Translations under genes and position numbers: made by a program | Notes under the pieces: generated by a model | Seen by the model: only the letters and a program-made list of their open reading frames with translations | Told to the model about the DNA's origin: nothing | The model's database searches: none | Assembly: GCA_008632985.1 (NCBI GenBank) | Contig: QPGO01000020.1 | Location: forward strand, 558,001-622,000 | Reading direction: 5' to 3' | Source: Psammoneis japonica | Taxonomy: Eukaryota | Length of the DNA stretch: 64,000 nucleotides | Shown here: piece after piece, positions 1 through 48,409 of the stretch | Layout: each line of letters begins with the position of its first letter | Position numbering within the stretch: position 1 is the first letter of the stretch

Positions 1-73
1 AGACTGCACAGAGATCCCGAAGGAGCTCATTGCAGCACAGCACAAGGTCACTCTTTGTCTGGACAGCCTCAAG

Positions 74-3000
74 GTGAATGGATTGCCATTCCTCACCACA
101 GTGTCACGAAACATTTTTCATCGCACGGCACAACCGCTCAAGGACTTGACCCAACCAACTCATCAAGAAGCTCTGGAAGATGTGCTGCGAGTCTACAACA
201 AGGCCGATTTGAAGGTCACACGCATTCATTGCGACAACGAATTCAGGCCCATTGGGAATGCACTAGAAGACAAGTTTGATCTCAAGGTGAGCTGCGCAAA
301 TGCTCAGGAGCATGTCCCACAAGCCGAAAGAAACAACCGAGTTATTCAAGAACGTGCCAGGGCAGTCTGTCATCAGCTGCCATTCAAGCATCTGCCAAAA
401 CTCATGGTCGAAGTCATGGTCACCGAAGCTGCTAAGAAGCTCAATTGTTTTCCAGCCAAGCACGGCGTTTCCAAACATTGCAGTCCAAGAATGATTCTCC
501 ATCAAAAGAATCTAGACTGTGACAAGAGCTGCAAGATCACGTTCGGCACTTGTGTGCAAGCTCACAACGACCCGGACCCCAAGAACACCCAAGAGTCACG
601 GACCTTAGATTGCATTTGTTTGCACCCCACTGACAGCAACCAGATTGGACATGAGTTGCTGCACTTGCAAACCGGCAAGAAGATCACTCATCGCAAGGTC
701 ACCCCTGTGCCCATCACTCCCGCCATCATGAAGCAGGTTCATCGTTTGGCTGAAATGAACAAGATGCCCAACGGTCTCAAGATTCAGAGCCGCACTGGAG
801 CTGTTTTGTATGACAGTGCTTGGCTTGCAGGAGTGGATTATGATGAAGATCAATTTGAAGACGAAGGTTGTGATCTAGAAGAAGACATTGAAGGCTGAAG
901 ACGATGAGGAAGAAGAGCTAGACTGGGGAGACTATGACAGAGTTAGTCAAGAAGAGCTGCAAGACACAATTCGGGAACAAGAATTGGATGAAGAAGCCAG
1001 CTGCATCAGTTAACAACAAGACGAGACTCAAGAAGAAACCTCCAATGATGAGCATCTCGGAGACAATGACGAAGTTGGTTCTCAACCATCAGACGGCAGC
1101 GGAATCTCACAAGAAATCGATGACATGATTGACCACATTGATGAACAACAGAGGCTGGAACAAGAGAAGGAACACTCTCCGGAAGTGCAAGAGATCATCG
1201 ACGAAATGAAAGACCTGGAATCTGATGACGAATCTGGAGAGGAGCAGAGTGAAACCAAAGAAAGTGTCCAAGAAGAGCCTGTTGCTACATCCAGGGCAGG
1301 AAGGACTCTCAAACCTCCAGTTAGATTGGGAGACTGCCAATGCCATCTGCAGACTCAAGCCCATTCACAAGAAGAAGCGTGCAGCTTGGAGACGGCCAGA
1401 ATCATGGCCATGACAATGTGCCAGTGGAACGAAAAGGTTAGCATGATTTCCACTGATGAAGAAGCACACCAATTTATTCAGACTTGCAGCTTGGCACGAG
1501 GACTCCAGAAGTTTGGAGAAGAAGGCCACAAGTCGGCAGTGTTAGAGCTGAAGCAAATCCATGACAGAGTGGTTTTCAAACCCATTCACATCAAGGACAT
1601 GACTCCACTGGAGAGGAAGAGAGCCATGGAGAGCCTCATGTTTCTCACAGAGAAGAGAGATGGACGAATCAAGTCAAGGTTGTGTGCAAACGGAAGCACG
1701 CAACGAGAGTGCATGGACCGAGATGAAACCGCCAGTCCGACAGCATCAACAGAATCCATTCTCATTGCAGGAGTGATCAATGCCAAGCAAGGCAGAGACG
1801 TCATGACGGCAGACATTCCAAACGCATTTGTGCAAACGGACATCGAGGTCAAGGATGAAAAGATCATCATGAAGATCCGTGGAAGGATGGTGGACATGTT
1901 GCTGGAATTGGATCCAGACACTTGCCAGGACTGCGTCGTGTGCGAAGGCAAACACAAGGTTCTCTACGTTGAAATGTTGAAGGCACTCTACGGAATGCTG
2001 GTGTCTTCCATTCTTTGTCACAAGAAGTTCCGCAGAGACATCGAAGGAATCGGATTTGAGATTTGATCCTTGTGATCCATGTGTCGCCAACCACATCGTG
2101 AATGGAAAACAACACACGGTGACATGGCATGTGGATGATTTGAAGTCCAGCCACGTTGACAGCAAGGTCAATGATGAATTCAAGATTTGGTTGGACAAAA
2201 CTCATGCGGATGAGATCGGAAAGGTCAAAGTCACGCGTGGAAAGAGGCATGACTGTCTAGCCATGACTCTAGATCACTCCATTCCAGGAGCATTGCAAGT
2301 TGACATGGTGCTTTGTGTGCAAGAAATGGTCAAGGAATTCTTCAAGAAATTCCCAGAAGAATTGTCGGGTGACGTGGATTGCCCGTGGAGCGAGAAGCTC
2401 AACAAGGTGGATGAGACAGCCAAGAAATTAGATCTCAAGCATGCTCAAGCATTTTGCACTTTTGTGATGAAGGGCATGTTTGTGTGCAAGAGAGCCAGAC
2501 AGGACATTCAGCCTGGCATTGCTTTTCTCTCTACCAGGGTCAAGGATCCGAATGAATCGGACTGGCCAAAGCTGGTAAGGCTCATGAATTTCCTCAAGAC
2601 AACCCAGCTTGATGTCGCAGTCATGTCGGCTGGAGACAAAGTTGTCATCGAGTGGCACACGGATGCCGCATTTGCAGTCCATCCGGACCATAAAAGTCAC
2701 ACAGGTTCTGCCATGACCCTTGGAAAAGGTGTCATTACATCAGTCAGCACGAAGCAGAAGATCAACACCAGGAGTTCTACGGAAGCAGAGATCGCCGCAG
2801 GAGACGATGTTTTGGCAAAGGTCCTTTGGACCAAGCGTTTCATTGAAGCTCAAGGTTTTGAAGTCGAGCGTAACATCATGCATCGAGACAATCAAAGTTG
2901 CATGAAACTAGAACAAAATGGAAAGGCCAGCTCGGGCAAACGCACGAGGCATTTCAACATCAAGCATTTTTACATCACCGACCTCATCAAGCGAGGAGAA

Positions 3001-3255
3001 CTTGAGATCAAGTTCTGCCCAACAGACAAGATGATGGCAGATTACATGACCAAACCAGTGGTTGGTAAAAAGTTCATTACTGATCGTCAAGCCATCATGA
3101 ACATCCAAGTGCCTAAGATGGTCAAATTTGGAAATGGCAAGAATCTTGTCATTGGTCAGCAGGAGTGTGTTGGAAATGGTGAATTAAAAGTTCAAACACC
3201 GAAATTAGATAGCGCGAAGAAGACGTATGCGTCAGCGCTCATGTGCTCTACGTGA
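74..3255 (+). pseudogene. pol: copia pol (IN-RT-RNase H), frameshifted near 895 and 2060, many Tyr->Cys/His changes
   Basis: ORFs 74-898, 1125-2066 and 2056-3255 carry successive pol motifs in different frames. Confidence 0.92.
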
Positions 3256-5902: not shown

Positions 5903-6229
5903 GATTGAAAAAATGAATTTCTTTGCTCGTGTAAGTCAAAACAAAATATATGCAAGATACTGGAAGAATGGAACAACCGAACACAACTCTCCAAACACAG
6001 GCTACTAATACTGTATCGTTCCTCTCTCGACTTTACTGGAGATGGCTGTCAAGGAAACTACAGCAGCAAACAACAAACTTCCAAACTGAAAACTGGAAAC
6101 GCATCAAATCATCATCCGCCCGACGACAAAACAAAATAATATGCAATTATCGGAGTTGAATGTCTATATTTGAGGGAAAATGCCGGTACCGCTCGCTCGA
6201 TGATGCGATGACTCACTCATCACATCATT

Positions 6230-9200
6230 TACGCACGCAATCATGGGCCATGGTTGGGGATGCAACACAGCGCCTTGTCGTGGAGACGACGAGTGGTTTT
6301 TCAAAGACTTGTTGCCCATGCCTCATGCCTGCGGCCTGGATCACTGCGACAGTCCAGCGCAACTGGCTGGCCTCTTGAGGATCCAAAGACTCTCATCATC
6401 AGAATCATCGCCATCAGAGTTTTCTCGCACACCGGCACTTTCTGGCTGGCTCTCAAGCTTCCTGGTGGTGTCGCTGAAGACCATGTCAAGGCCACAAGCA
6501 GTCATTTGGTGCTGCATGAAAAAGATGCATGGAATGACCATGGCTTCAGAAGCAACAAAGGCTGGCGGTTCTTGAAAAAAAAGGTTGCTGCTGATTTCTG
6601 TTTGGTGACCAAATGAGCCACAGACTGTGCGCTGGCAATGATGGAGCTTGGTCACACTGCAATCTGTTGATTGGATGGCAGCAAGGTCAGTGCAAGAATC
6701 ACAGCAGTGCAGCAGCCAAGAATCACAAGAAAACTGGGGCCACTTCTTCTCAGGCATGGAACTCAACATGGCGCAGCTTGAAGCTGTCAGTGTGTCCAAC
6801 TTGATGCACCGTTGAGAAAACTGTAAAGCTCATGCAATGCTGCTTGTGCACGGGCACAAAGTGCTGCAGCTGCTGGCTGGCTTGAAGTGTTTCTTGCTCT
6901 CAATCTTGGAAAGTGCTGTTGCAGCAAAAGACATGCAAGCTCCAGCTGCTTTCCGACGGTCGTTTGAGCTGACACACCCGCCCAATGTTTCAATGGCACA
7001 GGATTTGGTTGCAAAAGAGGATTGTTTGCATGTCATTGACTGAGCTTTCTTCTGTTGGACTTGCTCTCAACAACTTGCTTGTTCTTTTCTTTGAAGAACT
7101 TCATCAGCTGTTGAAAGGTGTTTTGAAGCAGCAAGAAAGCCTCTGCCCCATGCCCCATGTTCATTTTGATTTGGGTGTTGGGCATGCTTGCACATGTCCA
7201 AGACAAACAAGCTGCAATCAGAGTTGCTTGAGAGACACACTCCAGGCAGCATGCTTGGCATTGGAGCAACAGCGGTCATTTGAGATGGCTGCCAGTGATC
7301 ACAACTGAAGCTTTGAAGATTCCCCATCTGAGCTGGTGGTTTGTCTCACAGTGACACCACTCAATTGGTCTTGATGGCACACATGGCTTGAGGTTGTCAT
7401 TTTCGACTTTGCCTCCAGTTGGCAGCTTTCCTCCACACAACATTGACAAGCTTGGCATGCAGTGCCAGAGGCACAAATCATGTTGGAAGAAGCCAAGTTG
7501 GTCATGTGGCAAATGACTGTCAAGACTCCGCACTCATCACCTCTCTGCAACCGGCCTCACTTGATGCTTGATGGACTGAATGCATGCATCATGCAAGCAC
7601 CAAGTCAGCATGAAATGCAGTGCAATGAAGGGCTGGTGTGGCAATGATCTCATTCATTCGAGAAAGAGCACGAGGTGACTTGACAACGCTTTGCATCAAA
7701 AACAGCAGCTGGCTGCTGATGAAGCCACTGTGAAATGCCCAGTCCCAAGATTTTTGACAGGATTGGAACAGGATTTAGGTGCGCGCAAAATGTCGTGCGC
7801 TGTTCAGTTTACCGTGCACAGTTTTGTGTGCTTCAGTTCCGCGCGTTCGCGCGCTGTGCAGTTTGCTTTCGAGCCACAAGGCTCACAAGAATGACAACAG
7901 CAGCCCGATCACACCGACTCACACGTCTTTCGGCTCCTGCAACGGTCTCTGAGTGGAGACTCATCTGCCATTTAGACAGCAGCAAGGAGTTGTTGTTTGA
8001 ATTCTTGCCATTTGCCTTCAATTTCTGTCAGATTGACAGTCTTGCTCATTGTCAACCCATTGAGCAACCGCCATCGTCGTCGTTGATTTGCCGACGATGC
8101 CGTTTCAATTCTGCGTGGACCTCCGTGTGTGTTCTACGTACATCGGCAAGTCTGCGCGCATTCAATGCCAGGCATCGGCAGGAAGTTAACGTCACCGTCA
8201 AGTCTCCTCACCGCTGGACATCTGGGCTGATCATGCCACCTTTTGTCGCTAAAGACACACATTCAATTTTGGACAATGCTGCTGTTGCCTCCAGCTTGGA
8301 CACATGTCCAACAAGCAGATGCTGCCTCAGCTGCTTCATTCGTCATCAGCTGCATTTGACAAACAGTGGTTGGCTGCGCCAACTGGTTTGTTTGCTCATT
8401 CAAAAGTGAGAGACAGACAGACAGAGACAGCCACAACAACCAGTGTCATGACCAACATCACAGCCAAGCCAACAGCAGGCACACCCACACAAGCATGGCA
8501 CCTTTCTTTCTTGCCACTTGCAATGCACAAAGTCATCTCTCAGAATGGGGGTGGCTGAAGTCTCAAAGAGAAGTGTGAGTCACAAAGCATGACTCTGCAA
8601 GATGGCTGCAATCACAAATGAGTCAAACAGATCTTCAAACACTGTGGGATGTGGAGAAGAACACATCTGGTTGAAATTGGGGCTGATGACCCACAGAGGA
8701 GCATTGAACCCACTGGAGGGTTTTCAAATGTGAGAGACACTCAAAGAGCCACTCAAGTTGTCTGAAAGCACCTTGCAACTTTCATGAAAAAGGCTTTTTC
8801 CATCATGCACATCATCTTGGCCCAATGCTCAGACAACACAAGCACTCAAAAAGTGCGTTAGCTGGCAACTCAACAACTGCTCCATTTGACCTGTGCAAGC
8901 ATTCAATGCACATGCAAAAAGTGAATTTGCTGGCTGTGGCAGTGTGACCCCATCAGAGCCATGGGCCACTTTGAAAGGCAGTGGTTGTTTTTGATGTGTT
9001 CCAACAGCCTCAGGTGGGAGCTTGCAGTGCTGGGGTGTGACACAAACATTTTTTTGCAATGTGCTGCATGTCAAGCATGTGCACTGTGCATTTTTTAGTG
9101 GGCTCTTCCACAGAATTGCTCTGCACTCCCTGCTTTTCAAAGCCTGGTGATCATTGGTGCATTCATCACCTGACAATTTGCTGTGGAGCTTGCACGCAGA

Positions 9201-9734
9201 ATTTTTGCAGGCTCAGCAGCATCACAGCAGGAATTGCCACCCACCAGCACATCTGGGTCACATCATCGCACCTTGAGACAACTTCCAAAGACATGCGCAA
9301 CCAAGTGCACAGAGGAAAACAGGCCCACATGGCAATGGTGTGCCGACATCATTCAACAACTCAGCACTGGCAGAAGATCCAGCTTGCAACGAGAACAAGA
9401 TGATCAACTCACGGTGCCTTCAAAGCAACCATGGCAGCAAAGATGACGATGTGCTTCAAAGAGTCCAGTGGAAATTTTTGTGTCCTCCTTGCAACAAAAT
9501 GAGCGAACTGATTCAAACTTCACTTTTTCCCTGTGAACGGGATGACTTTCATAAAAGGACCTCACAAAAATGAGTGCAAAAATGGTGGTCATGCAGAGAT
9601 GATGCTGCAGTGTGCACAAGTGCCAAAGCCATGTCTCTTGTCTGCACAAAGCAGCAATGGCTCGGAGGCATTGCCCGCACCAGCAACAAGCACTTGCACC
9701 GGCAACAAGTGCGCACACCAGCAAAAAGCAGGCA
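6230..9734. repeat. TpA-depleted hypermutated repeat/TE remnant, family unidentified
   Basis: TA is nearly absent and TG/CA is abundant. Overlapping Cys/His/Gln-rich ORFs occur in all frames. Confidence 0.6.
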
Positions 9735-12493
9735 ATGAACTTGCCCCACCGGCATGTGTTTGATCCTGCTCTCCAGGCTTCTCTCTTTCGGTTTGGCTTC
9801 CCGGGCTGTAGGGTCGAATCGAGAACAGGCTGTGGAGAACACAAAGTACACTCTGAACTACAAAGTGCAACTTTAGCATGACACTGCATGTGCCATTGAT
9901 CCCACTTTATGCTTCTCTCCCTGAATTCGATTCCCTTGGCTACAACTAGGGTCGATTGCTTCCGTGACGCCAATCGGGAACGGGCCACAGCCAAAAACGC
10001 GAGGCTGTGGGCAGCATGCGGATCTAGCCTCTCTAGGCAGCAATGGTTGTGTTTGGCAATAAAAAGATTGTATTGGGATCCATTAATTTGAACGAGACGA
10101 TTGAAAAGCTGCATGAACAACAAAGTTCTGTGTTTGTTCTAGACGCCACAGAATGCTTTCCATCTTTTATTGCCACAGAGAGGAGCCGCCATCCTTCCTG
10201 GCGCATAGACAGAACCATTCCGTGACGCCAACACTCACCTCATTCTTTTCATTCTTCCACAATTCATTCTCCGCGTCCGAAACAAGCAAGGGCTTGGTTC
10301 ATTGACTGCCGCGGGTCTCGAGCAAATGCAGAGTCGTCATGTCGTTGAAGCACCAATCTTGCCTGGTGCACATTTTGTTCCGGAAAACACAAGTCGCGGG
10401 GTGGGACCCACTGTCACTTGAACCTTGGTATTTCAACAAAGACTGACTGCCGCATCGTTCAAGTCGGGTGGTTGAACCGGTGTGAGGGTGCATTTCTATG
10501 TCGACAAAATGAAGGGGAAAAGCAATGTCAGCAAACAAATCTCGAATGAAAAGCAAAATAGACACGAAATCGACTTACATTGGGGGTGCATTCGAATGTA
10601 GCGTAGCACAACGAGCGCACCCCATGGCATTTGAACTGCACGACAAACTCGTGCAATGTTGGCGAGTCTTTGATGCGCACAAAAGCTGCACTGCACCATG
10701 AAATGGAACCAAGAGATGCCCCCATGCATGCTCCATGTCCAAGAGTACAAAACAAGCAGTTAATGAGTCTAGCGGCGACTCATGATCCTTGCGGATCTAC
10801 ACACGACACACCCAGCATTAGACGAAAGAAAGACGCTGCCCGTTGCTCCACCGAGCCCAGGCAAGCGTCTCAAAGAGACAGGACGGGCTGCTTTCTCCTC
10901 GTTTCTCGCAGCAACAACAACAATGCCCACAGGATCGACGTTTTCGTCTGGAAACTCCGCGTTCTCCACGTCTTGATCCTCTCCTTCTGGCATGATGTCA
11001 TGTTGCACTAACCCATCGTCGACAGGATCCTCCGAATCATCCATCGGCATTTCCACGTCTGGTGGATCATTCAAGGCATCATCAGGCTCCTCGTCAGCTG
11101 CTGGAACGACTTCCCCCAAGGGTTCCGCTTCACCCTCTCCTTCTGGAACAATGTCATGTTGCAGCAACCCGACGCCCAAAGGATCCTCCGAATCGTCCAT
11201 CGGCACTTCCACGTCTGGTGGAGCATCCAAAGCATCGTCTGGCTCCTCACGCACTTCAACAACTGCATCCACCGGAACAACTTCCTCCTCGGCAACAGGA
11301 TCATCATCAAAAGCAATGGCAGGATCAGCAATGGGTTCCTCAACCACTGCAACTCCGAAAATGGCCTCGACCGGTTCAATTGCCGCTGGAGTCCGTACCC
11401 ATCCACGCCAGTGATCACATCTTGGGTGCGATTGACATCCATGAATGTACAGGTTTTGTTTCGAGTCAAACTCAAGCAGCGCCGCAGTCAACTGCTGATC
11501 ATTCAGGAGGGGAAGAACCCGAGTGTAACGTGGACGTCGAAGAACAGGTTTAGCAACCACGCCAGTTGGGATTGGAGGAAGGTCACCGACAAAGACATTC
11601 TTGATCAGGTCTTCATCCGGCAGCCATCCTAAAAGCCGCTGATGATGCTGCCGAGCCAGCTTGTCATGCTTCTCGTCGATTCGTCTCAATGCAACGTTCA
11701 ATGTCTGACCCGACAGCACTGGAATCTTGGTCGTGTGCTTTGGATGTCGAAGAACTTTTGGAGCAACCACGCCGGTTGGGACTGGAGGAGAGTCGCCAAC
11801 GACAATGCCTTGAACAAGCATTCGGTCCGGTCTCCATCTGATCCGACCGCTGCCACATGCTTTGCGCTTGGCGTCGTCAACAGCTGCTGCAGAATCGTCC
11901 AATGCTTCAGCCACAGGTTCCTTTACTGCGGCAACAGGAACGCCCACCTCCACATCGACTGGAGCATCGTCAACATCCACAGCAGGCTCGTTCAAGGCAT
12001 CCCAAGGATCAACAGTGTCATCAGCTTCAGGAGCTACATCCTCCACCGCAGTGGGATTGTTGCCCATGGCATCAGCTGGTTCAATGGCCGCTGGAGTCCG
12101 TTCCCATCCACGCCAGTGATCACATCTTAGGTGCGATTGACACTCACGAATGCATTGGTCCTGCTTCCATTCAAACTCACGCAGAGCTGCAGCCAATCGC
12201 TGTTCATCCAATGCGGGTGTTGCACGAGTGCATTGAGGGATCCGAAGTCCTCGCGGAGCAACCACGCCGGTTGGGACTGGAGGAGTGTCACCAACGTCAA
12301 TGCCTTGAACAAGCATTCGGTCCGGTCTCCATCTGATCCGACCGCGACAAAATGGCTCACGCTTCAAGAGCAGCAGCCATGGGGATAAAAATTGCAAGGG
12401 AACATATACGGCATAATGCATGGTCCATACAACCACTGCAACCGCAAGAATGGCCGCAACAGCATCGCACGCTCGATCATAAAGAAGAGTCGT

Positions 12494-12840
12494 TGTGGGA
12501 AAGTAGCCAGAATTCTAAGATTCGTCTGCACTTTCAGTGGTCAAAAGCTGCAATTGCGATACAACAATCAATCAGTAACTTTATTGTACCAAAAGTTGAG
12601 AGGTGATAATCAGTACGTTAGAAAGATTATGAGCAGTTTTTATGAGCAGATGCAGCTGCCATCTAAAGGAAACGCGAAGTTAAACAAGCGCGAAGCTAGG
12701 AACAAATATCGCATTCGTGACTCGGCTTCCGCGGGATTCGAGACTGAGCATCGCACACGGGGTTCGAATCTTGGATCTCTGATTGGAATCGTGGAGGTCC
12801 GATGTTGTTGTAAAAACATGCAAATATGAATATTGTCACA
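12494..12840 (-). repeat. 3' LTR (largely unmutated)
   Basis: Direct repeat of 18655-19001. Preceded on the minus strand by PPT TTGAAGGGAG (12841-12850). Confidence 0.95.
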
Positions 12841-12883
12841 CTCCCTTCAACAATGTCGGGTGGAATGATGACTCGAAAACGTC

Positions 12884-15800
12884 TTACCACTTAAGGAGCG
12901 ATTTCCTGTGTTTAACGAAGAGATTCTGTGGTAGAGGTTTGGTGAAAATGTCTGCAATCTGATCCGCCGTATCAATTGGTAGGATTGATATGAGACCTTT
13001 GCGAACATGGTCTTTAAAGTGGTGGAGAGTGAGGTTGAAGTGTTTTGTCCGAGGACGCATCTTAGGCAATCTCGCGATCTCCAATGCTCCAGAATTGTCT
13101 TCAAAAGCCTTACAATGTACGACTGGTGTCTTGGAAGGGACATTATGACCGTGATCCATAAATTCTTGAATGAGGTTCATAATTGGGATGGTGCTTCGAA
13201 GACTTTCCGAAAGAGCGATAAATTCAGCTTCAGTAGTGCTGAGCGCGATCTGAGTCTGTAGCTTGGACGTCCAGACAATCGGACATCCTGCATAGGTGAT
13301 GACAAACCCAGTTCGAGATTTGGAAGTGCCGACGTCATTGGGTGCAGTCAGCTTATTCCAATTGCCCACAAAGTCCGCGTCGGCGTGAACTTCAAGGGAC
13401 TTGTCCGTTGAGGGCTGTAGTATAATACCTTCAGTTCTGGTTGACCTTAGGTACTTACAGAGCCATAGTACGGCTTCACCGTGAGAAACCTTGGGATCGG
13501 AAGAAAAGCGTGCGACTTGGTGCACCGCGTAAGCGATATCCGGTCGAGTGCTCTTCTCCAGAAAATTGAGCTTGCCGATGATGGATCGGTAATGAAAGCT
13601 CCCTTGGAAAGCAGGCTCACTCATATGCCTGTGGAGGATCTTGGAGGAAGGAGCAGGAGTAGACTTATCTGGTAGTCTCTTTGGAATATTGGCCATCTCC
13701 AGTATCTGATTGATAAGGTGAGGTTGGGTAAGTTTCATTCTGCCGTCTGGTAGTGTCTCGACGTTGACACCGAGATAGTCGTCCAGAGTGCCTTGATCAT
13801 CAATATCAAACTTCTCATCTCTGATATCCTGTATCGCCTTGTCAATAGCAGACTTGTCAGGGGATGCAAAGATACCGTCATCGACATAATGAATGAAAAT
13901 GACATTGCCACGAAAATACAGGCACTCATCAACTGCCGATTGTACGAAACCAATCCTTAACAATCCATCACGTAAGTGTTCTTGCCATACTCTCCCTGCT
14001 TGCTTTTGTCCATATAAGTTCTTGAGCAACTTCAGAACATGAGTCTTACCATTGCCATATCTTGTTTCAATTCCTGCAGGTAACTCCATGTACATATCAT
14101 ATTCGATATCGGCATGCGGATACGCCAGAACGAAGTCGACTTGGCGTGTATGCCACTTCTTAAGAATGGCAATGATCAGTAGGAGCCGGATAGTGAACCA
14201 GAAGACCACGGCAGAGTAGGTCTGGAAGTAGTTGACAGCATACTCTTGCTTTCCACCGTGCACATTAAGTCGGGACTTCCATTTGTAGACGGCTTGGGTC
14301 TTAATATCTCTTTTGCGCTTCATAGACCATACCGAAGGGAGAACATCAACATCGTCAGGTACGTCCTCTCTTGGAATGAGTATCCAATGTTTCCTTTCAA
14401 TATGATCATTGACTTCCTTAACACAGGCCTTGATAAATTCGTCTCTGTCAGGTTCACGCATAGCCTGATCAAAGTACATGGTGTCGGGGTCCGAGCTCGC
14501 CAGAAAAGAGATAGGTGAGTCCATATCGTCCTGCAGTTTGTAATCATCCTCGTGCATCGCATCATAATATGCCTCTGCCTCTGCATTGTAGGAGACAATG
14601 CCTTGAGCCCGTTGTAGTTGGCTCTCGCGCATCCTTTCGGTCGGGCGTCGTTGTCGGCCGGACCTACTGGTATTGGGTTGACCCATAGTGCGCTGTGGCT
14701 CAGATGGTGCGTCTGAATCATCTGGAGGTGTGTATAGCATTTCATCATCCGGTTGGGCATTGTCAAATGAGTCATCAGTGGTAGACGTATCAGTAGGATG
14801 CAGCAGCTGAGACGGGATATCCGAATTCGGCTCAGGTGGTTCCGTTGTGGTAGGGACTGATCCCTCAACCGGTACGTCACTTGATTTCCCAAAGATGTTG
14901 AAAGTACTCCTTGTCTTGAGTTGTCTGAAACCTGTAATGCCTTGCCATTGTGAGAATGTAGGAGGATTCCCAGCAGATGGACGAACAGTCTCAAAGAAGT
15001 CGTCAAATTGTACGTGAAATTGCGGCGATACGAGTCCGGTCTGCAAATTCAAAACCAAGGTAACTGAACCTGCGTGTCTTGTTGATGGTCCCAAATTGAT
15101 TCCTAACCTTGCCCTTGGGTCCCACTTAGGCAGCCTACCTCCTCCCTGCAACCGGTTGTGCAAGGCGTAGACGGGACAGCCGAAGGTATGGTGTTGTTTG
15201 AGATTAGGCTGGACCTTAACGGACGAGAAACGTTCCAGCGGAGAAGAGCCGTCCTCGTGATTCGGTAAGTGATTCTTGATCTCGTTTGAGTTCCTGAGAG
15301 CGCTTGGCCATAAGTTCAACTCAATAGCCGTTGGCCATCTCACTTTTGCATGCAGGAGTTGCTTCCGAGATTGCTCTTGGAGGTCCCTTATTCTTTTCTC
15401 CGCGATGCCGTTTTGGAAGTGGGCGTTGACCCCACAATAGGATATTGTTTGCTGTTGCTTCTTGACGTCTTGTATGAAAGCATTATCAGCGAATCTTCCA
15501 TTGTCGGCGTGGTAGTGTTGAATACGGACGTGCATCCGGCGTGCGAATGCCTCGAAAGCGTGCTTGGCTTCGAGCGTTTCGGCTGAGGTAAGTCCTTTCT
15601 GCAAATATATGTATCCCAATCCGCTGAAATGATCAACAAAAATTGTCGCTGCTCGATACCTTTGCTTCGTAGGTCTCCCTTTGAGCTGTGGGATCAATCC
15701 AGGAGTAGGACTCTCGAGCTGGTCGACGGATACGGCTTCTCCAGGCGAAGTTGCCAAGTGGATTCGTCGGTTCCGCTTGGACTTGGAGCGCCATGGTCGT

Positions 15801-17074
15801 TTCGTCATGGCACCGTATAGGCAGCCGGCACATTTTGGGTTGTGTACCTTTGTAAGGCGTTTCGGTAGAATGCCTAGGGCGGCCAATAGCTTTATCATTT
15901 TGAATGACATGTGGCCCAGGCGGTAATGCCAACGCAATAGTTCACCCTGGTCATCTGTGGCAGCAAGGGCGTCATCATTTGGTGTGATGTTGATGGGTTC
16001 CGGAAAGTCCTGCTGTGCCTCCGGTGTCGTGAAATCCCTTAGGTTTTCCTCGTCTGAGTCTGAACGACTTGCTCCGTCTGTTGGCTCAAATGAGACAGGA
16101 GCATCCTCATCAGCAGTGTTGCGTGCGTCTTGCGTCTCGGAAGGACGTGTCTCGGATGGACTTCTGAAGACGTCTGTATCAATTGCAGCCTCGTCATCAT
16201 TCGCAACACTCTCGTCGTCTGGTGGTATGATGTGAGCTTGACAGGCCACGTGCTCGATAGTTTCGATGTCGGTTTGTTCTTCGACAGCGGCTGCAAAGGT
16301 CCGGCATTTGTTGGAACCGGGTGCGGAGCGCATCTTGGCGACGTTAGAGTTGGCGGACCATGGAATCAGGCGATGGCACTTGCGCTGGTCCCACATCAGC
16401 AACAGTCCGTCGTCCCCAGTCCAAGATGCGGTTCCGTGAGGCTCTGGCGTGTGGTCATTGGCTTGCTGGCTCCATTGCTGCGGGCAGAGAAGACAATGAG
16501 GTAAGTCCGGTACGAGCAGCGCGTCTCGAATTTTGATGCTGTGCACTCGTCCCATGTCGTCCTCAATTGCCCACTGCACTGTTCCTTCTCCCTCAGCACG
16601 CAAGCAGCCCTTGACACCGAGTGCCACTTTGTTGGATTTGCGAAGAGGACCAATGAAGTGTGCCTCGTCGTTGGACATGGTGCAGGAAGAATGTGAGTCG
16701 ACACCGATTGCGAATGAGTCCGAATCGTAAGTGGGCTCCGTTCGCTCGGGACGGCATGGTGTGGTTGAGTTGTGCGCTCTAACCGTCTTGTGTCGCGCAA
16801 TGACACAGCGAGCCTTCTTGGTGGCCACTCTGGAGCGGTGACCTGGCCTCGTCGACGCATGACACCGTGCGCAGCACCTCGTCGTTGGCCGTCGCTGGTG
16901 AGTCTTAACTCGTCTTGTGCACTTTTCTGAAGGAAGGGACAGCATCACGAATGGCAGTGTGATCCAGATCGGTGCTGCACATTTCATGACGCCAGCGACC
17001 GCTGTCAGGAGCACTGACACAGTGACGGCTGTCTGCAAGGACAGCAGCAGTGTCAGAGTGAACCTGCAGAGCAG
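12884..17074 (-). CDS. pol: copia Pol polyprotein (protease, GAG-pre-integrase, integrase, RT, RNase H)
   Basis: Uninterrupted 1384-aa ORF with motifs IGVDSHSS, WHYRLGH..CAGC, SVDQ..ADNG..QNGIAE, LYGQKQAG, HYVDD, ADADF and ADIFTKPL. Confidence 0.95.
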   Translation of the reverse strand: MLCRFTLTLLLSLQTAVTVSVLLTAVAGVMKCAAPIWITLPFVMLSLPSEKCTRRVKTHQRRPTTRCCARCHASTRPGHRSRVATKKARCVIARHKTVRAHNSTTPCRPERTEPTYDSDSFAIGVDSHSSCTMSNDEAHFIGPLRKSNKVALGVKGCLRAEGEGTVQWAIEDDMGRVHSIKIRDALLVPDLPHCLLCPQQWSQQANDHTPEPHGTASWTGDDGLLLMWDQRKCHRLIPWSANSNVAKMRSAPGSNKCRTFAAAVEEQTDIETIEHVACQAHIIPPDDESVANDDEAAIDTDVFRSPSETRPSETQDARNTADEDAPVSFEPTDGASRSDSDEENLRDFTTPEAQQDFPEPINITPNDDALAATDDQGELLRWHYRLGHMSFKMIKLLAALGILPKRLTKVHNPKCAGCLYGAMTKRPWRSKSKRNRRIHLATSPGEAVSVDQLESPTPGLIPQLKGRPTKQRYRAATIFVDHFSGLGYIYLQKGLTSAETLEAKHAFEAFARRMHVRIQHYHADNGRFADNAFIQDVKKQQQTISYCGVNAHFQNGIAEKRIRDLQEQSRKQLLHAKVRWPTAIELNLWPSALRNSNEIKNHLPNHEDGSSPLERFSSVKVQPNLKQHHTFGCPVYALHNRLQGGGRLPKWDPRARLGINLGPSTRHAGSVTLVLNLQTGLVSPQFHVQFDDFFETVRPSAGNPPTFSQWQGITGFRQLKTRSTFNIFGKSSDVPVEGSVPTTTEPPEPNSDIPSQLLHPTDTSTTDDSFDNAQPDDEMLYTPPDDSDAPSEPQRTMGQPNTSRSGRQRRPTERMRESQLQRAQGIVSYNAEAEAYYDAMHEDDYKLQDDMDSPISFLASSDPDTMYFDQAMREPDRDEFIKACVKEVNDHIERKHWILIPREDVPDDVDVLPSVWSMKRKRDIKTQAVYKWKSRLNVHGGKQEYAVNYFQTYSAVVFWFTIRLLLIIAILKKWHTRQVDFVLAYPHADIEYDMYMELPAGIETRYGNGKTHVLKLLKNLYGQKQAGRVWQEHLRDGLLRIGFVQSAVDECLYFRGNVIFIHYVDDGIFASPDKSAIDKAIQDIRDEKFDIDDQGTLDDYLGVNVETLPDGRMKLTQPHLINQILEMANIPKRLPDKSTPAPSSKILHRHMSEPAFQGSFHYRSIIGKLNFLEKSTRPDIAYAVHQVARFSSDPKVSHGEAVLWLCKYLRSTRTEGIILQPSTDKSLEVHADADFVGNWNKLTAPNDVGTSKSRTGFVITYAGCPIVWTSKLQTQIALSTTEAEFIALSESLRSTIPIMNLIQEFMDHGHNVPSKTPVVHCKAFEDNSGALEIARLPKMRPRTKHFNLTLHHFKDHVRKGLISILPIDTADQIADIFTKPLPQNLFVKHRKSLLKW

Positions 17075-18580
17075 TCACTCTTGATCCACTTCGTTTGGGA
17101 TGGCAGAGATGGCACTTGCGAAGGAGACTTTCTTGTCCGACGTGTCTGTGGATGGAGCAGACTGTTGCTTGCGGAGTCTACAGCCTTGGTTGCCCGGATC
17201 ATCAGGCAAGTGCATGACCCAAGCAGTGTGACATGGGCACCAGTGACAGTCGCGATTGTTGACGCGCTTGTGATGGCACTGATGACCGTTCACTGTCTTC
17301 TCAGGAGCGTCCTCCTTGGGCGGGACTTTCTTCCAGGCTTCGTCCGCTTTCTGTCTCTGACGTGGAGTGGTCTTGGTCTTCCTTGACCGTGTGCTTCTTT
17401 CCTTGGTTGAACCAGCCTTGGCCTTCAAAGCTTTAGATGGCTGAAGGTTCTGATCCTTGATGGAGTCTACCTTGGCTGCAAGCGCGACGATTTGCTCTTC
17501 AGCCGGTGATGGTGCTCCCCACTTCTTCTCGCGCTTGAGGTCAGCACATTTGTTCAGTGCCAACGTCATGATTTGCGTCGGCGTGAATTCCTCACCGTCG
17601 TCGCACCTGTCCTTGTGCAACATGATGTGCTTGACGAATGCTTCGTCAGCAGCTGCGGCGCATCCTTTGAACAGATTCATGATGAGGTCGTCGCACTGCT
17701 CTCCTCTAGCTTGGAGTCCGTCAACGTTGAGCTTGGCATGCTTGTTGAACTCTTCGATGTCCGAGTTGACAGCCGCCATGCAGGTGTCCAGGCTTGACAA
17801 GTTCTCGCGGAAGCAGTTGGTGGCAGAGCGTGTGTCAACGATGGCCTTTTGCGCAAGCAGCTTGAAGAATGGTGTGCCGATTTGATTTCCATTGATCGTG
17901 TGGGAATCTGTCTCAGCCAATGTCTTGTCTCTTGCTTCCTCCGCAAGGGATTGAGAGATCGCCTCGGCCATCTGCACATTGTTCTGTGCTTGTCGCGCAG
18001 GCAGATTCGCGAAGGTGTTCGCGTGGGTTCTAACATCCTGCAGAGTGAGCAGTCCGCACTCGGAGATGAGATCTCGTGGAGTTCCATTCACGTCGGGAAT
18101 GGCAAGCATGTCTCCTGCCCCTGTTTTCCATCCTGCCTCGGCAGCTCGTTGACCGAGTGTCTCACAAAACCGTTTGAGACCTTCTGAATCGCCGTTGAAC
18201 TCGTGCGGCAGCGGTGCAGCAGCGGCGTTCCAAAGCTTGAGGCCTTGCGATGTGCCGCAGTCAATGAAGTTGTTGGGACGGTGTTGACCTGGAGTCAACG
18301 CGAAGATCGGCAGTGGCGGCACAGGCGCCAATGGTGGTCCACCTGGCGGGACTCCACCTGGTGGGACTCCACCTCCGCCTCCTCCTCCACCTCCTCCGCC
18401 ACCTCCTCCTGGAGGCACACCGGGAGGAACGACTGGGGGAGGTGCAGGAGCAACTGGAGCGGCTGCAGGAGCAGGTGCTGTTGCCGGAGCAGCAGCAGTG
18501 GCAGGAGCTGCAGCGGGTGCAGCAGCGGGAGCTGCAACAGAGGCAGCTGGAGCAGCCGCGGTTCATGTCTGCGTGACCAC
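17075..18580 (-). pseudogene. gag: copia Gag with Ala/Pro- and Gly-rich N-terminus, start codon lost, no Tyr left
   Basis: Motifs FALTPG, NSDIEEFN, KKWGAPS and zinc-finger-like HWCPCHTAWVMH. The frame extends upstream to GTG GTC ACG CAG ACA TGA at 18580. Confidence 0.85.
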
Positions 18581-18641
18581 AGCAACAGCAGAGTAAAGCA
18601 GAATCGAGAGCTCAAGATCGATTGACTCAACTTGTAGATTT

Positions 18642-18654
18642 CGCAGAGGAAGCG
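18642..18654 (-). promoter_or_regulatory. Putative primer-binding site complementary to the D-arm of initiator tRNA-Met
   Basis: CGCTTCCTCTGCG abuts the 5' LTR. Its complement CGCAGAGGAAGCG resembles the eukaryotic tRNAi D-arm GCGCAGNGGAAGCG. Confidence 0.6.
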
Positions 18655-19001
18655 TGTGGGAAAGTGGCCAGAATTCTAAGATTCGTCTGCACTTTCAGTG
18701 ACCAAAAGCTGCAACTGCGATGCAACAATCAATCAGTGACTTCATTGTGCCAAAAGTTGAGAGGTGACAATCAGTGCGTTAGAAAGATTGTGAGCAGTTT
18801 TTGTGAGCAGATGCAGCTGCCATCTAAAGGAAACGCGAAGTTGAACAAGCGCGAAGCTGGGGACAAATGTCGCACTCGTGACTCGGCTTCCGCGGGATTC
18901 GAGACTGAGCATCGCACACGGGGTTCGAATCTTGGATCTCTGATTGGAATCGTGGAGGTCCGATGTTGTTGTAAAAACATGCAAATGTGAACATTGTCAC
19001 A
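18655..19001 (-). repeat. 5' LTR (hypermutated)
   Basis: Direct repeat of 12494-12840 with 19 transitions. Confidence 0.95.
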
Positions 19002-22000
19002 GTCGTCAGGTCGTCAATGTCCACAATTCGGCGGTGCAAGTGATGGACACAACTGCCAATTGACTTCAACACCAAGCACATGAATGTCACAGCATGCAAA
19101 GAGAGGAGAACTTTACAGACCGCAAGGACAAAGGACACGACAGCGTGAATCGTGCATCGAATCTTGCTTGCAGAAACGCACGAATTCCAAAGGAAACCGC
19201 TGATGATTCGGCCGTGGTTCTGCTTGCCGTGATGTGCACGTAGCAGGAGATTCACAAAGAGCATGATTAGTGCAATGCATGCAATCACAATGGGGGCAAC
19301 AGTGTCAACAAAGATAGAGATTGGTAAGAGTGTTTCAATTCAACAGAAATTGGATTTTTGTGTGGTGAGAGAGGTGAGCGAGACACGGTCGCTCGTTGTT
19401 GCGGCTGACACCATTCGTGAATGCGTAGAAACTCTACTGGAGAAGCCTGTAGAGAAGCCGACAGTCAGTCACGCTTTTCAAGTTTTGACGGGAGACTAAC
19501 TAGAGGCACGTTTGCATTCGGTTCCTCGTAGGCTCTCAACTAGCCAGTAGTGGGGTGAAACAGTCAGAGGCCGAGACTGTGATAATGTTAGATTTATCCA
19601 TTTAAAATGAACAATATCTGCTTTTGAGCTCTTCTACAATGACACTCAGTTTATTGGATTCTCGTGCTTTCTCCCGCGGCAGATTTGTTAAAGCATCTGA
19701 CAATGAAATAAATTCTTGATCGAAAATATCGGTAGGGTAAGACTACTCATTCTCCGCCCCAATGATTGAGGAGTAGCCTCACAGGCTGGTATAATGACGC
19801 ATTCACTTCCGTGCGTACTCGACAGTGCCGGGGGTGCTATGTCTTTGCGTATCTTCGCCAACAACTTGAACAACAGAGCTATCGCTTTACGTTGCTGAAA
19901 GGTAACTTGTTGATCAAACAAACAACCGGCACCAGACTCTTTGGCCGCATTGATGAAAGTACTTTCTCAAACAACTTCGTTTCTTCAGCACTGACGACCA
20001 GAGCATCGTGCTTGTTTTCAAGACATTAGCATGTGACTAGTAAGGCTCCCCTTGCGTACGCAGCAGCAGAGACAAGAACACATCCAGCGCAACTTGGTCA
20101 CACCGGATAGAAGATTCAGATACTATTCCCGTAAGTCCAAGCACGTGATACTTGCCCATAGCCTGACTGGTTGATGTTGTTGCAATGGCAGGTAAAAGTA
20201 TTTCTACCGGGCATGCGACTGAAACGGCAAACAAGTCGATTGACACCAACATTCGGCGTAAATTTAGTGCCGCCAGACTCGAAGTATAGCTGTTTGCTCT
20301 ATTTAGCTTCGTTGCGGGTGGTATCAAGCTAGGGTTGTCTGCTCCGACTGTACCGGTACGGCGAAACTGTACTCTACTGTAGGAATACCCGCAAAACGAA
20401 GAACCTCCAGAAGAAAATACAATAGCGAACATTCCCTCGAATCTTGCAAAGAATTTCAGACTTGTTGGGTTAATCGGGCATGGGTATTTACCATAGGGAA
20501 ATCTGAAGTAATCAGGATGCATCTTGCACATAATTTCAGACTTCTTGGGTCGTTCCGTCAAAAGCACTTACAGTAATCTGAAATACTCACGGTGACTATG
20601 TTGTATCCCGCCTGTCGTGTCACGGTCTGTAAAAGCAAGTGAGGAAAGGTGAATGCCAAAGTTGCGCACGTTTCCCAACCACCAATGTACCATACAATAA
20701 TGATTCTTCTCAAGAAATTTGACTTGACGAGTCGTTAAGGCAGTTGAAAAGTTCATTTTGCGCGGGTGACGAAGCAACAGCAACAGCAACGCGAAAAGGG
20801 AGATCGAACAATCGCGTCTGGCGTCTGACAACTACTTGTTGGTTGCTTATCTTTTTCGTCTGCAGACTGGATTGCAGCTCTCTGCTACAAATGTACCGCA
20901 CTTCACTCTGGGGTTCACCATTCAACTCCAGATCCACCTGTTGCGACATGTGCGTTTCACACGACAGAGGTCTGGATACCTGTGGTGTGCGGCACGAGAG
21001 GGCTCTCTCGAGTGCCATGGACTTGCTACTGCATGGAATTGTTTCGACGTCTTGAAGCGCAGCGGGCTTTTTCCCATGTTGAATGGATGCGTTTGAATTT
21101 GAAGCGTTGGATTTTCTGTCCGCCGTCCCGTCTCCCGTCCGTCGTGCGCAGAGTTTGTCAACACAGCAAAGAAAAAACACCGCACCATGGCGTGTGGAAC
21201 TCGGAGACCTACCACTCTGTAACTTCTGTAAGGATTTGTCAAGCGACACCGCGTCTAAGAATTGTTTCATAACTTCAAGTTTTGCCATGATTTATGGGGT
21301 CGGTGTTTGGATTAAAGGACGGCAGGAGAACGGCAGGAGAATCAGAAGTGCTGAAAAAAAGGCGTCCATCTCGGCATAAAGAGCAAGTACATCATGCGGG
21401 ATACAACTCGATCGGCAAGCTTGTTTGGTCGGTTTGGTGGCTTGTTTGGTGGATGTCATTTTGAAGTTCTATGTGAATGAATCATACTCGTTTGTATTAC
21501 AAACATGCTGATGCGCCTTTCCTCTTATTCAAAATACAATCTGTCTCATTCCATACTATTTTTCTTTGGAATAGCTCAAACATGAATTAAGTATTACGAT
21601 TTACGATGGCCCCGGGCATTGCAGCCGAGATTGGTAGCCAGATTGGCGCCCATGGGAATAATGATGTCTCGGCCGGCGCTTCGCCCATCCTTACCCTACG
21701 GTTGTATGCTCATTACTATGGATGCAGGTAAGTTGTATCCTTCACTAAAAACGTTTGGAGATTCGCAACCCGAAAGCATCCTCTCTTTTTGGTTTCCACC
21801 TGGTACGGAGTTTCATTTCTAATCTCATTCTTTATTCCGTTGCTTGTCATACCCAATCACAGCCAGCATCTTTATGCGAGAAATGGACAAGTAGTGGATT
21901 GTCTCATGTAAATGCCGCAGCTGTTGGTAGGGAAGTTTTCAGTGCATTCACGATATTCATTTCGGGTAATTGCTGTCATGGCTGTTGCTTTCGGTCATCC

Positions 22001-27465: not shown

Positions 27466-29009
27466 TTTCATGTCGTGCTTCAAATATAAGCTATGTGCTC
27501 GACGGTATCATGAATACCCTTCATTTTTGCTTCCAAGGCTTTCTGAGCATACCTGTACTTCTGATGCACTTCATCACAATCCAAGCATGAGACGATGTTC
27601 TTATTATACAGGCGTCTCTGACCCGTGGCAGCAGTTGCGCTCGCTTGTTCCCCGAGAAACATCTCTCTCACGACACTTTTACAAACAAGGCAACTCTCTG
27701 AGCCTTGATAGTTGTTATAGTTGAAGCAGTCCCTCGAGAGTCAAATGCGAATGCCATCCATATGCTCCGTCGCGATTCATGTAACAGTGATTCTACGTTG
27801 TACATAGTCGACCCGAGTGCGCTCTCCAAGACAGAGCATTTGCTTTTATCAGTTTCAAGCGCTCGTATTCTGACCATGTGTGCCCTTCAAGTGATGGAGA
27901 AATGCCAAAGCTAGAGAGGACACTGGGTGCAGTTTGCCTCCTGTACTTTCCTCGTCTGTAGCGGGATCGGTTTGCATTCGTATTAATGCTCGAGTTTGCA
28001 ACAAGAGCCTGCATCGGTCCTACCAGAGTCTATCTGATACACCAGGGTCCAACACACTACGAAGGCGTGACCGTCGTTGCCTCTCAACATGTCATAACTG
28101 TCCACGATTATGTGTTTTGCTTTGGCCGTCAATCTTCAATCTTTATTCATGCGCTCCAAGCAAATGCATCAGCGATGATATCAGTTTAAGAGCCTACCAG
28201 AAACCGGATTCCGATATCTGTAGATGCGACGCTGCTTGTCTCGCCCTCGAGAACCCGAGCAAAGCAGCCGTAGTTTTGCAGCAACAGTAATAACAACACG
28301 AGCCAATCAGAAACTCGAAGACGAGCCCGCAAACGAAGCTCGCCCATTCTCGCAACGGCATTCCCAAGATTCAGAGGCAACCATTTCAAGCCAAGTATAA
28401 TAGCTGTGTATCGTTTCAAGCCCGTACACGAGTCACGTTGGTCGTGCTTCCTCCTGAATTCAGAATGGGACACGCCAAGTTTCCAACTGCACGCTAGGTT
28501 GAGTTATGCAGGGGAAAGTAGCCATTATCTTGCGTCGACCTTGCTGCAAAGCGATCGATAAATTCTATAACGGCCAAGCTCTGTCGTCGGCAACGCATCG
28601 TTGGCGACTCACTCAATCACTGCGTAGACATCAACAATAATACTTTTTCAAGAGCTTCTTTGCAGTCACTTGTAAAGGGCCGAATGTCACCAACTGAATG
28701 TTCTTGTTGAGAGTCGCCGAGTGACTGCTCAGCCCAAACCACGCGGTAGCATAATCACATATCACATTGATTTGCGCCTCATCTCTCCGTCTCGGGAAGA
28801 CGTTTCCCATGCAGTTTCTGAGATGCTGTACCGACTGCCTGTCTGATTTTCAAATTTTTGATTCCTCTTCTTTCTCCTCGCACTTGTATACATAGATGAG
28901 GGATTAATTCTATATATGGATTTTAATATTTTCTTTTGATCTCAACGGATCCGTTTAGGAATGATCGTCAGACGGAAATAAGAGAACATAATTTTAATGA
29001 GGAAATAAT

Positions 29010-36600: not shown

Positions 36601-36786
36601 CTAATGCGTATCCTTGCAGAGCAAAAAACAATGTAAAAAAGGAATAGCCGAAGCATTCTTGTCACATGATTATTTCAATCCGCTAAGGGGGTGATGTAAG
36701 CTACTGGTACAAAAGGTGGTCCTTATTACGTTGAACTATTTCTATTTTCATTGCTACTCTGTGGCTGTTCTAAAAAGAGAGGCAGA

Positions 36787-46779: not shown

Positions 46780-46845
46780 CCCCCCCCCCCCCACACACAC
46801 ACACACACACACACACAGCAGAGGAAGAAGAGGAGGAGGAGGATG
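46780..46845 (+). repeat. poly-C, (CA)n and (GAG)n microsatellite
   Basis: Directly visible simple repeats. Confidence 0.9.
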
Positions 46846-48243: not shown

Positions 48244-48409
48244 ATGTGATGGGTCACTGTCGCATCCCATGTTTGTGGCTAATTTGTGGATCTCAAGATT
48301 CAAATTTGGTGCAAGTGAGTGCATTGCACACATGCAAAGCAAGGTGTTGTGGGCACTGCAATGGCTTTGTTGTCATTGCAGACACTGCAGCCAACCAAAC
48401 AAACCACAC

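Follow-up and report, generated by a model that had tools for sequence, protein, structure and literature searches.

We describe a one-sided loss of the dinucleotide TpA in a 64,000-nucleotide stretch of Psammoneis japonica DNA (contig QPGO01000020.1, positions 558,001 to 622,000; the window in what follows, with positions counted from its first letter). The window contains an inverted duplicate, the right copy of which (R) is continuous and the left copy of which (L) is split by a Copia-type long terminal repeat (LTR) retrotransposon. Our best explanation, which we hold to be likely, is that a hypermutation acting at the DNA level and confined to TpA struck L, the 5' half of its retrotransposon and several older stretches. 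The signature of the change, its polarity, its timing after the insertion and the geometry of the affected tracts are established by the comparisons below, and separate lines of evidence concur in making L and the 5' LTR derived and R and the 3' LTR unmutated.

An inverted duplicate with TpA lost from one copy

In a self-BLAST of the window, the 3,439-bp segment R recurred in inverted orientation on the left as two pieces, L1 and L2, separated by the 6.5-kb retrotransposon (Table 1). L2 aligned with R at 94.8% identity over 2,766 columns (60754-63516 versus 12493-9735) and L1 at 92.1% over 692 columns (60078-60759 versus 19681-19001). An earlier note on this DNA had proposed an inverted duplicate; the duplicate is real, but it is larger and more structured than first described. 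The same note had rightly recognised one before/after pair, but the retrotransposon inside L, the second pair formed by its LTRs and the 45% of the window that bears the signature had gone unnoticed. L retains non-coding flanks both up- and downstream and has no retrocopy features. Inspected for the marks of a mobile element, the 3.4-kb unit showed neither a terminal inverted repeat (best local score 15) nor a target duplication. At 10245 and 10249, contigs from two public sequencing runs (X1 and X2, see below) carry letters that match neither L nor R, which points to at least one further genomic copy of the 3.4-kb segment.

The differences between the two copies are directional. Comparison of R 60441-60540 with the reverse complement of L 19220-19319 gives exactly 11 differences in 100 bp, all TA in R and TG or CA in L, as had been counted before, and the peptides quoted earlier for both copies are correct on re-translation. 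The full L/R alignment holds 169 mismatches, namely 111 sites with A/T in R and G/C in L, 22 opposite transitions and 36 transversions; 96 of the 111 lie in CpA/TpG context in L. Where R has TpA (154 sites), L reads CA 45 times, TG 47 times, TA 57 times, something else five times and CG never. Conversely, only two of the 61 TpA of L are CA or TG in R. Divergence at these sites is one-sided (92:2, binomial p=4.5e-25). The TpA-specific rate per base in L is, by comparative estimate, about 43 times the background divergence per lineage, and the ratio TpA/ApT is 0.15-0.37 in L and 0.00-0.12 in the old tracts described below. CpG losses number 12 in L against 7 in R.

Conversion is unevenly distributed along L. 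Within 9735-12350 of L2, 66 TpA were converted and 34 kept; in L1, 21 were converted and 3 kept up to position 19312, and beyond it only two were converted.

The LTRs of the retrotransposon within L differ in the same way

The retrotransposon carries a gag and a pol frame, both still uninterrupted, and the integrase-associated domains upstream of RVT_2 in pol mark it as Copia-type. Its LTRs, each 347 bp long, begin with TGTGGG, end with GTCACA and are 94.5% alike, with 19 mismatches and no gap (self-BLAST). A 5-bp target duplication, GTCGT, flanks the insertion (12489-12493 and 19002-19006), and in X1 and X2 contigs 12487 is followed immediately by 19001, which corresponds to the empty site seen in R.

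Eleven of the 18 TpA of the 3' LTR read TG in the 5' LTR and three read CA, while the 5' LTR's own four TpA are all TA in the 3' LTR. TA-type differences therefore number 14 and others five, and 18 of the 19 have A/T in the 3' LTR and G/C in the 5' LTR. As both LTRs of an element derive from a single template and start out identical when it integrates, the 14:0 difference must have arisen in place, after the insertion.

Within the depleted tract the encoded proteins have lost nearly all Tyr, which accounts for none of 448 residues in gag and one of 365 in the part of pol that lies there, compared with 2.9% of 1,020 in the rest of pol. The expected numbers were derived from 18 Copia homologues, picked from 150 listed because their match spans both parts of pol, and the expectation summed over these was substituted for a test on conserved Tyr columns. 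On this basis 8.6 Tyr would be expected in the tract part of pol, against one observed (Poisson P=0.0018), and 18.8 in the spared part, which has 22 and keeps 12 of 14 conserved Tyr columns.

Between 13971 and 17948, X2 contigs skip pieces of 70-113 bases that begin with GTAAGT, GTAACT or GTGAG and end with AG on the + strand. The skips lie antisense to the frames of the retrotransposon and look like spliced antisense RNA, in a run that is not recorded as RNA. Antisense RNA of this family of elements probably exists.

L and the 5' LTR are the derived states

The ratio of observed to expected TpA (o/e) is 0.58-0.77 in R and 0.63 in the 3' LTR, compared with 0.58-0.72 in gene-bearing segments of the window (a mitochondrial carrier, a DUF5010/CBM35 protein, a GMC oxidoreductase and a histone-deacetylase fragment), 0.17-0.34 in L and 0.17 in the 5' LTR. 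The frame of R is open over 669 codons. It keeps 12 of 12 TGG codons, and 17 of the 19 CAA or CAG codons of L are also CAA or CAG in R, so that the retention of Trp and Gln codons and the lack of stops reported earlier for this copy hold. L contains 31 stop-prone codons (CAA, CAG and TGG), and the probability that all of them escaped a C-to-T change in R is 0.005-0.009 at the observed rate; a change of TpA to CpA or TpG cannot create stop codons. The R frame starts with ATG at 60472, where L reads GTG.

Internal repeats of the gene offer a further comparison. At TA-type sites the paralogous repeat unit has the R state, in both L and R, in six cases and the L state in none (p=0.03). At five further TA-type sites both units are split the same way, as would fit a saturation of 60-70% in L and would not fit a rate of 15% in R.

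Composition, codons, internal repeats, the LTR pair and the Tyr deficit thus agree with the earlier claim that the left, retrotransposon-embedded copy is derived and is the only one hypermutated. Two other parts of that account have to be given up. The earlier note had cast the change as repeat-induced point mutation (RIP); with L derived, A:T was turned into G:C at TpA, the opposite of the C-to-T change by which RIP makes TpA. Its fallback, that the right copy is younger, fails as well, as a copy made from the mutated L would bear L letters, and R does not.

Depleted tracts follow position and cross repeat boundaries

The window was divided by a two-state model on pyrimidine-purine steps, and its composition was followed in 1-kb and 250-bp steps. 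The 1-kb steps are bimodal. Normal DNA has TpA o/e of 0.4-0.9, CpA+TpG of about 1.0-1.3 and CpG of about 0.8-1.2, and a second class has TpA of 0.00-0.22 with CpA+TpG of 1.5-1.9; across all 64 steps the TpA and CpA+TpG indices are correlated with r=-0.92. Seven depleted segments together cover 28.9 kb, or 45% of the window (Table 1). Twenty of the 64 steps pass the joint thresholds of a preprint on Bigelowiella natans (bioRxiv 10.64898/2026.01.13.699255), with runs at 6001-10000, 29001-37000 and 43001-51000.

Table 1. Positions of the duplicate, the retrotransposon and the depleted segments in the window (o/e, observed/expected)
Feature	Position	Strand	Basis or values
Depleted segment, relic of a second, distant Copia pol	5-3038	+	TpA o/e 0.16
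Old saturated tract adjoining L2	6190-9807		TpA o/e 0.05; 12 TpA versus 232 expected; CA+TG 1.80; CpG 0.39
L2, 3' part of left copy, TpA-hypermutated	9735-12493	-	Self-BLAST, dinucleotide counts
Depleted segment, most of L2	10210-12380		TpA o/e 0.17
Spared island: 3' LTR and RT/RNase H half of pol	12386-15938		TpA o/e 0.67
Copia-type LTR retrotransposon inserted in L	12494-19001	-	LTRs, Pfam, target duplication
3' LTR, unmutated reference state	12494-12840	-	18 TpA, o/e 0.63
pol frame, 1,384 residues	12884-17038	-	Pfam gag_pre-integrs, SH3_retrovirus, RVT_2
Young tract B	15943-19312 (model segment to 19424; converted sites end 19310)		TpA o/e 0.15; CpG o/e 0.85
gag-like frame, 447 residues	17075-18418	-	Translation
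5' LTR, hypermutated after insertion	18655-19001	-	TpA o/e 0.17
L1, 5' part of left copy	19002-19681	-	19002-19312 hypermutated, 19313-19681 almost spared
Depleted segment	20897-21202		TpA o/e 0.12
Old tract, content unassigned, includes 187-bp tandem array	29009-36599		TpA o/e 0.05; 27 versus 515 expected; CpG 0.14
Old tract, content unassigned	42826-51511		TpA o/e 0.06; 34 versus 568 expected; CpG 0.36
R, unmutated duplicate	60078-63516	+	Self-BLAST; TpA o/e 0.58-0.77; 2 of 61 L TpA are CA/TG here
R open frame, 669 codons, orphan protein with internal repeats	60472-62481	+	Translation

The young tract in L, tract B, begins at about 19312, 24 bases upstream of the L start codon (19288), takes in the first 0.3 kb of the L gene, crosses the junction of host and element at 19001, continues through the 5' LTR, gag and the N-terminal part of pol and ends inside pol near 15943. 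Tract edges are sharp at the 250-bp scale, and tracts include unique flanks and end inside repeats. One LTR, one duplicate and part of a multi-copy element were thus hit together with adjoining sequence, which argues for positional targeting and is not what pairing or sequence recognition would give. The view that targeting goes by place and not by pairing, put forward in the earlier note, is therefore supported: one member of each repeat pair was struck (L, and the 5' LTR), and the tracts run across repeat boundaries.

CpG follows a different course. Its o/e is 0.14-0.39 in the old tracts and 0.85-0.87 in the two young ones, from which 80% of TpA has already gone. As the young tracts are poor in TpA and normal in CpG, the loss of TpA is fast and comes first, with CpG decay as a slower overlay.

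The depleted tracts fill intergenic intervals. One ends at 36599 and the carrier gene begins at 36790; another begins at 42826 and a phosphoesterase-like frame (a weak match, below the cut-off) ends at 42106.

Conversion prefers T-A-pyrimidine and acts on both strands

Both strands were hit equally (47 TG, 45 CA). The 92 conversions form 45 strand runs compared with 47.0 expected, and in this test there was no sign of strand-wise, processive events. The following base did matter: the share of A's hit was 48% before C, 42% before T, 25% before G and 13% before A (chi-square p=4e-5), and in those TpA in which the two A's have differing 3' neighbours, the A before a pyrimidine was hit 36 times and the other 16 times (p=0.008). 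The TpA that survive in depleted tracts show the complementary bias. With Y for pyrimidine and, in these motifs only, R for purine, YTAR makes up 73 of 150 survivors compared with 249 of 1,540 TpA in normal DNA (p=4e-18), and RTAY 11 of 150 compared with 500 of 1,540; in the four old tracts alone the counts are 55 of 104 for YTAR and 4 of 104 for RTAY.

Between 60% and 100% of the TpA in a tract was removed, while other substitutions amount to about 1% per lineage. Open frames persist as Tyr codons vanish, since this change cannot give rise to TAA or TAG and erases those already present.

A proposed mechanism

In the mechanism that we favour, an A following a T would be changed to G, giving TpG, or CpA where the other strand is hit. 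The process would act site by site on both strands with a preference for T-A-Y. Its tracts would be set by position, in silent intergenic intervals rich in transposable elements (TEs), with sharp edges and without repeat pairing, and slower CpG decay would follow in old tracts. The enzyme is probably an adenine deaminase acting on DNA, perhaps of the ADAT/TadA type or perhaps another deaminase. Chromatin state might set the targeting, and the role could be defence against mobile DNA.

Several points weigh against this account. Both the deaminase and the targeting by chromatin are inferred from DNA letters. The polarity of L and R rests on indirect tests, as the searches yielded neither a third copy nor an outgroup sequence of the gene to align, and among these tests the comparison of internal repeats involves small numbers (6:0). 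Only two conserved Tyr columns fall in the tract part of pol, and there the element has Leu, not His or Cys. The spared island at 12386-15938, which lies between two mutated tracts, has no explanation in our scheme. The difference between L1 (21 of 24 converted) and L2 (66 of 100; p=0.047) is too weak to order the mutation of L relative to the insertion. Finally, the platform of runs X1-X3 is not on record, and their sample is the same as that of the likely assembly source, so that they are not independent of it.

Sequencing evidence and rival explanations

The public runs X1-X3 come from one sample and one study, and their contigs are built from exact 31-letter words. Over 9735-19681, 363 of 1,440 aligned X1 contigs are at least 99% alike, and no contigs of X3 aligned to this interval. 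At several converted sites, among them 10390, 11165, 11189 and 11204, the L letter and the R letter both occur in X1 contigs. Forty of the 449 variant places on 9735-19681 were listed, and of the 35 of these in L2, 33 show the R letter. X2 contigs carry R letters over the 669-codon frame. In X1, the word depth near 11152-11265 is about three times as high for R-type as for L-type letters.

These data bear on the possibility that the signature is an artefact of sequencing or consensus calling, in which a base modification in silent chromatin makes TpA read as TpG or CpA. The tracts do coincide with probable heterochromatin, and the assembly as well as X1-X3, its platform likewise not on record, stem from a single sample. 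Noisy reads, however, would not yield exact-word contigs with depths from tens to thousands that hold L- and R-type letters, conversion is all-or-none at each site, and CG is never produced, as expected of real, sequential mutation. The old tracts also show loss of CpG and change enough to erase protein similarity, and the same signature arose de novo in B. natans lines sequenced with Illumina (bioRxiv 10.64898/2026.01.13.699255). With no TA-to-CG change, a rule for the 3' neighbour and real decay in old tracts, true mutation is favoured, and we consider an artefact very unlikely. A classical RIP-like process of the opposite polarity, in which R and the 3' LTR took C-to-T changes at CpA and L and the 5' LTR stayed unmutated, appears highly improbable. 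CpA to TpA is the signature of RIP, cytosine deamination is the commoner chemistry, and the differences by themselves are symmetric in information. Yet it is R and the 3' LTR that stand at the TpA level of the window's housekeeping genes, and L and the 5' LTR that are abnormal; all 31 stop-prone codons would have had to escape (P<0.01), the ATG of R would have to be made from GTG, and the internal repeats favour the R state 6:0. Moreover, Tyr is deficient in the tract half of the element rather than in excess in the other half, the best-matching organisms are diatoms and not Pezizomycotina, and 7-kb tracts with TpA o/e of 0.05 could not be accounted for.

A third possibility places the change in RNA: A-to-I editing of double-stranded transcripts (sense/antisense TE RNA, or L/R hybrids) would be copied into DNA by reverse transcription and cDNA-mediated conversion. 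Both strands are equally hit, the GT..AG skips of X2 antisense to the element indicate that antisense TE RNA probably exists, and ADAR-type editing typically favours an A preceded by U (bioRxiv 10.64898/2026.01.13.699255). The two LTRs of one insertion nevertheless differ, which places the change in integrated DNA; tract B passes unbroken from the element into host sequence; L keeps its non-coding flanks and lacks the features of a retrocopy; and a conversion tract would have to match exactly these odd limits. ADAR, in addition, is not known outside animals. We judge this explanation improbable. Least credible of all, and close to negligible in our view, is that there was no hypermutation and that slow compositional drift, GC-biased gene conversion or selection against TpA produced the pattern. 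TpA is mildly under-represented in most genomes, and the change raises GC as biased conversion would, but the roughly 43-fold TpA-specific rate in L, the restriction to one dinucleotide with a 3'-neighbour rule, the 14 TA-type against 5 other differences in the young LTR pair and the sharpness of the edges at 250 bp all speak against it, and A/T sites outside TpA lack the same excess, with only 15 of the 111 lying outside CpA/TpG context.

Comparison with known systems

The DNA-level TpA hypermutation that we favour has a close counterpart in B. natans. In mutation-accumulation lines of that alga, two integrated viral regions received 231 of the 302 new single-nucleotide mutations, and all but one of the 231 were A-to-G or T-to-C, all of these at TpA; the genome holds 124 clusters of 1-kb windows poor in TpA and rich in CpA+TpG, its TpA-poor genes are enriched in reverse-transcriptase domains, the rate in cultured lines is about 1000 times background, and an ADAT2-like adenine deaminase is suggested by the authors (bioRxiv 10.64898/2026.01.13.699255). 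The changes described here resemble these in being almost only A-to-G/T-to-C (111 of 169 mismatches and 111 of 133 transitions between R and L, 18 of 19 differences in the LTR pair), in converting TpA to TpG or CpA (92 of 154 in R/L, 14 of 18 in the LTRs) and in being local rather than genome-wide, with clusters of 1-kb windows of the same composition. They differ in several respects. The targets are Copia elements, a duplicated orphan gene and unassigned relics instead of viral regions, and no viral gene was recognised in Pfam scans of the window's frames. Depletion is deeper, with an o/e of 0.05 over 7-8 kb compared with 0.45 in the B. natans region derived from a nucleocytoplasmic large DNA virus (same preprint). 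A preference for T-A-Y and later CpG decay are seen here, and the main text of the preprint speaks of neither; the words 'trinucleotide', 'downstream' and 'CpG' do not occur in it. The evidence here is comparative and does not come from mutation-accumulation lines.

The lineage also differs, as the conserved genes of the window match diatoms best, at 72-80%. For the mitochondrial carrier piece, the best named matches among those listed are the diatoms Ditylum (80%), Odontella (76%) and Thalassiosira (72%), followed by the ochrophytes Triparma, Ectocarpus, Tribonema and Nannochloropsis; Bigelowiella does not appear among the 120 matches listed. The DUF5010 gene reaches 73% with its best database match.

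With RIP of filamentous ascomycetes the process shares burst-like, dinucleotide-specific transitions in mobile DNA and duplicates, and the same pair of dinucleotides. RIP uses CpA as substrate and TpA as product, so that TpA/ApT rises; it recognises duplicates by homology and as a rule mutates both, and it goes with a RID-type methyltransferase and the sexual cycle of Pezizomycotina. Here, by contrast, TpA is consumed, 111 sites of the derived copy went to G/C and 22 to A/T, no stop codons were made, and one member of each pair was hit (92:2 for L/R, 14:0 for the LTRs) with unique flanks included. Fungal RIP was accordingly rejected as a candidate, its C:G-to-T:A direction, its CpA substrate and its homology-based mutation of both copies all having failed when tested.

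ADAR hyper-editing and APOBEC/AID activity likewise produce clustered deaminase-type transitions in mobile elements, in the case of ADAR with a U or T 5' of the edited A, and the start of tract B near a gene start recalls AID-driven somatic hypermutation, whose tract also starts there. APOBEC and AID, however, act on C and not on A. ADAR works on double-stranded RNA and leaves DNA unchanged, whereas the change here was fixed in integrated DNA after insertion, and unlike editing of any of these kinds it shows neither strand bias nor strand runs.

Diatom TEs are methylated, CpG decay of 5-methylcytosine (5mC)-bearing transposons has been reported for diatoms, and the role of the RID-related DNMT4 in diatoms is described as unknown; TpA loss is not mentioned in the part of this source available (PMC9998398). 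The low CpG o/e of 0.14-0.39 and the CpA/TpG excess in the old tracts resemble such decay and fit methylated, silent TEs. Decay of CpG cannot, however, remove TpA, and the young tracts are poor in TpA at a CpG o/e of 0.85-0.87. Taken with the CpG losses of 12 versus 7 in L and R, these CpG-normal young tracts identify CpG decay as a separate, slower overlay.

Our literature search found no description of such a process beyond the B. natans preprint. On our best reading, the window represents a second lineage with a TpA-erasing signature, with two built-in controls at one locus. New here are the T-A-pyrimidine preference, the near-complete loss of TpA in older tracts and the later decay of CpG in them. 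TadA and ADAT enzymes act in the U-A-C context of the anticodon loop. The T-A-C/T preference may recall this context, by an analogy that offers a lead rather than a test.

It is possible, if not quite probable, that diatom-like stramenopiles possess a 'reverse RIP', a DNA adenine-editing defence that would erase TpA in silent, TE-rich chromatin, in cis and without pairing, and that they would share with the rhizarian Bigelowiella. If so, the process would either be old within the SAR (stramenopile, alveolate and rhizarian) groups or have spread among algae. Elements would be inactivated by wholesale missense change (Tyr to His or Cys) with their frames left open, and long stop-free frames would be made, a potential source of new genes and of errors by gene finders. 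Hardly any natural case of programmed A:T-to-G:C editing in nuclear DNA is known, and the same signature near saturation in the genome of a diatom-like organism would raise such editing to a genome defence that spans lineages. The two internally controlled before/after pairs, the gene duplicate and the LTR pair, fix the polarity, reveal action after integration and indicate that targeting follows position, not sequence identity; T-A-Y is a site preference that any enzyme candidate must reproduce. For annotation, TpA-free tracts contain spurious long open frames in all six frames and hide transposons from homology searches, and TpA conversion biases the dating of insertions by LTR divergence.

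The orphan protein and other contents of the window

The 669-residue protein encoded by R has a hydrophobic N-terminus and an acidic tail. It matched no Pfam family, had no relative in the protein collection within the length classes searched (367-1171 residues only) and gave no usable Atlas hit; in metagenome contigs, none of 120 pattern matches was confirmed. The internal repeats of its gene comprise 60883-60993 and 61378-61488, which are 94.6% alike, a unit of about 218 bases at 60952 and 61657 and a unit of about 122 bases at 62005 and 62161.

The three old tracts were scanned with 139 of their 147 stop-to-stop frames of at least 75 residues, and none of these reached a Pfam curated cut-off; the eight omitted lie within 34331-35605, in or beside the 187-bp array, and an earlier Pfam pass had covered 52 of 136 frames of at least 110 residues. 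A search of the window with Rfam gave 0 matches. Many overlapping frames of 110-260 residues occur on both strands in TpA-free DNA at 44000-47500 and 10600-12400. Such long overlapping frames are probably by-products of the loss of stop codons and not genes.

A second Copia pol occupies 1-3252, with three long open frames at TpA o/e of 0.13-0.19; the frames of this relic stay open because TAA and TAG cannot form. Its RVT_2 match (E=5e-7, 30.0 bits) lies just under the curated cut-off of 31.6, and it is 24% identical to the RNase H end of the intact pol (E=2e-12).

Two tandem arrays lie in or near the old tracts. That at 34270-35317 has a unit of 187 bp in 4.8 copies with 83% matches and is crossed by a 472-residue frame; the step 34001-35000 contains zero TpA. 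The other, at 51681-52105, is a 167-bp repeat in 2.5 copies with 93% matches, just outside the tract edge at 51511, and has relatives inside the tract at 49651-49779. Within the old tract that adjoins L2, a 500-bp island (7751-8250) has a normal CpG o/e of 1.0-1.1 and a few TpA and may be a younger insertion into the tract.

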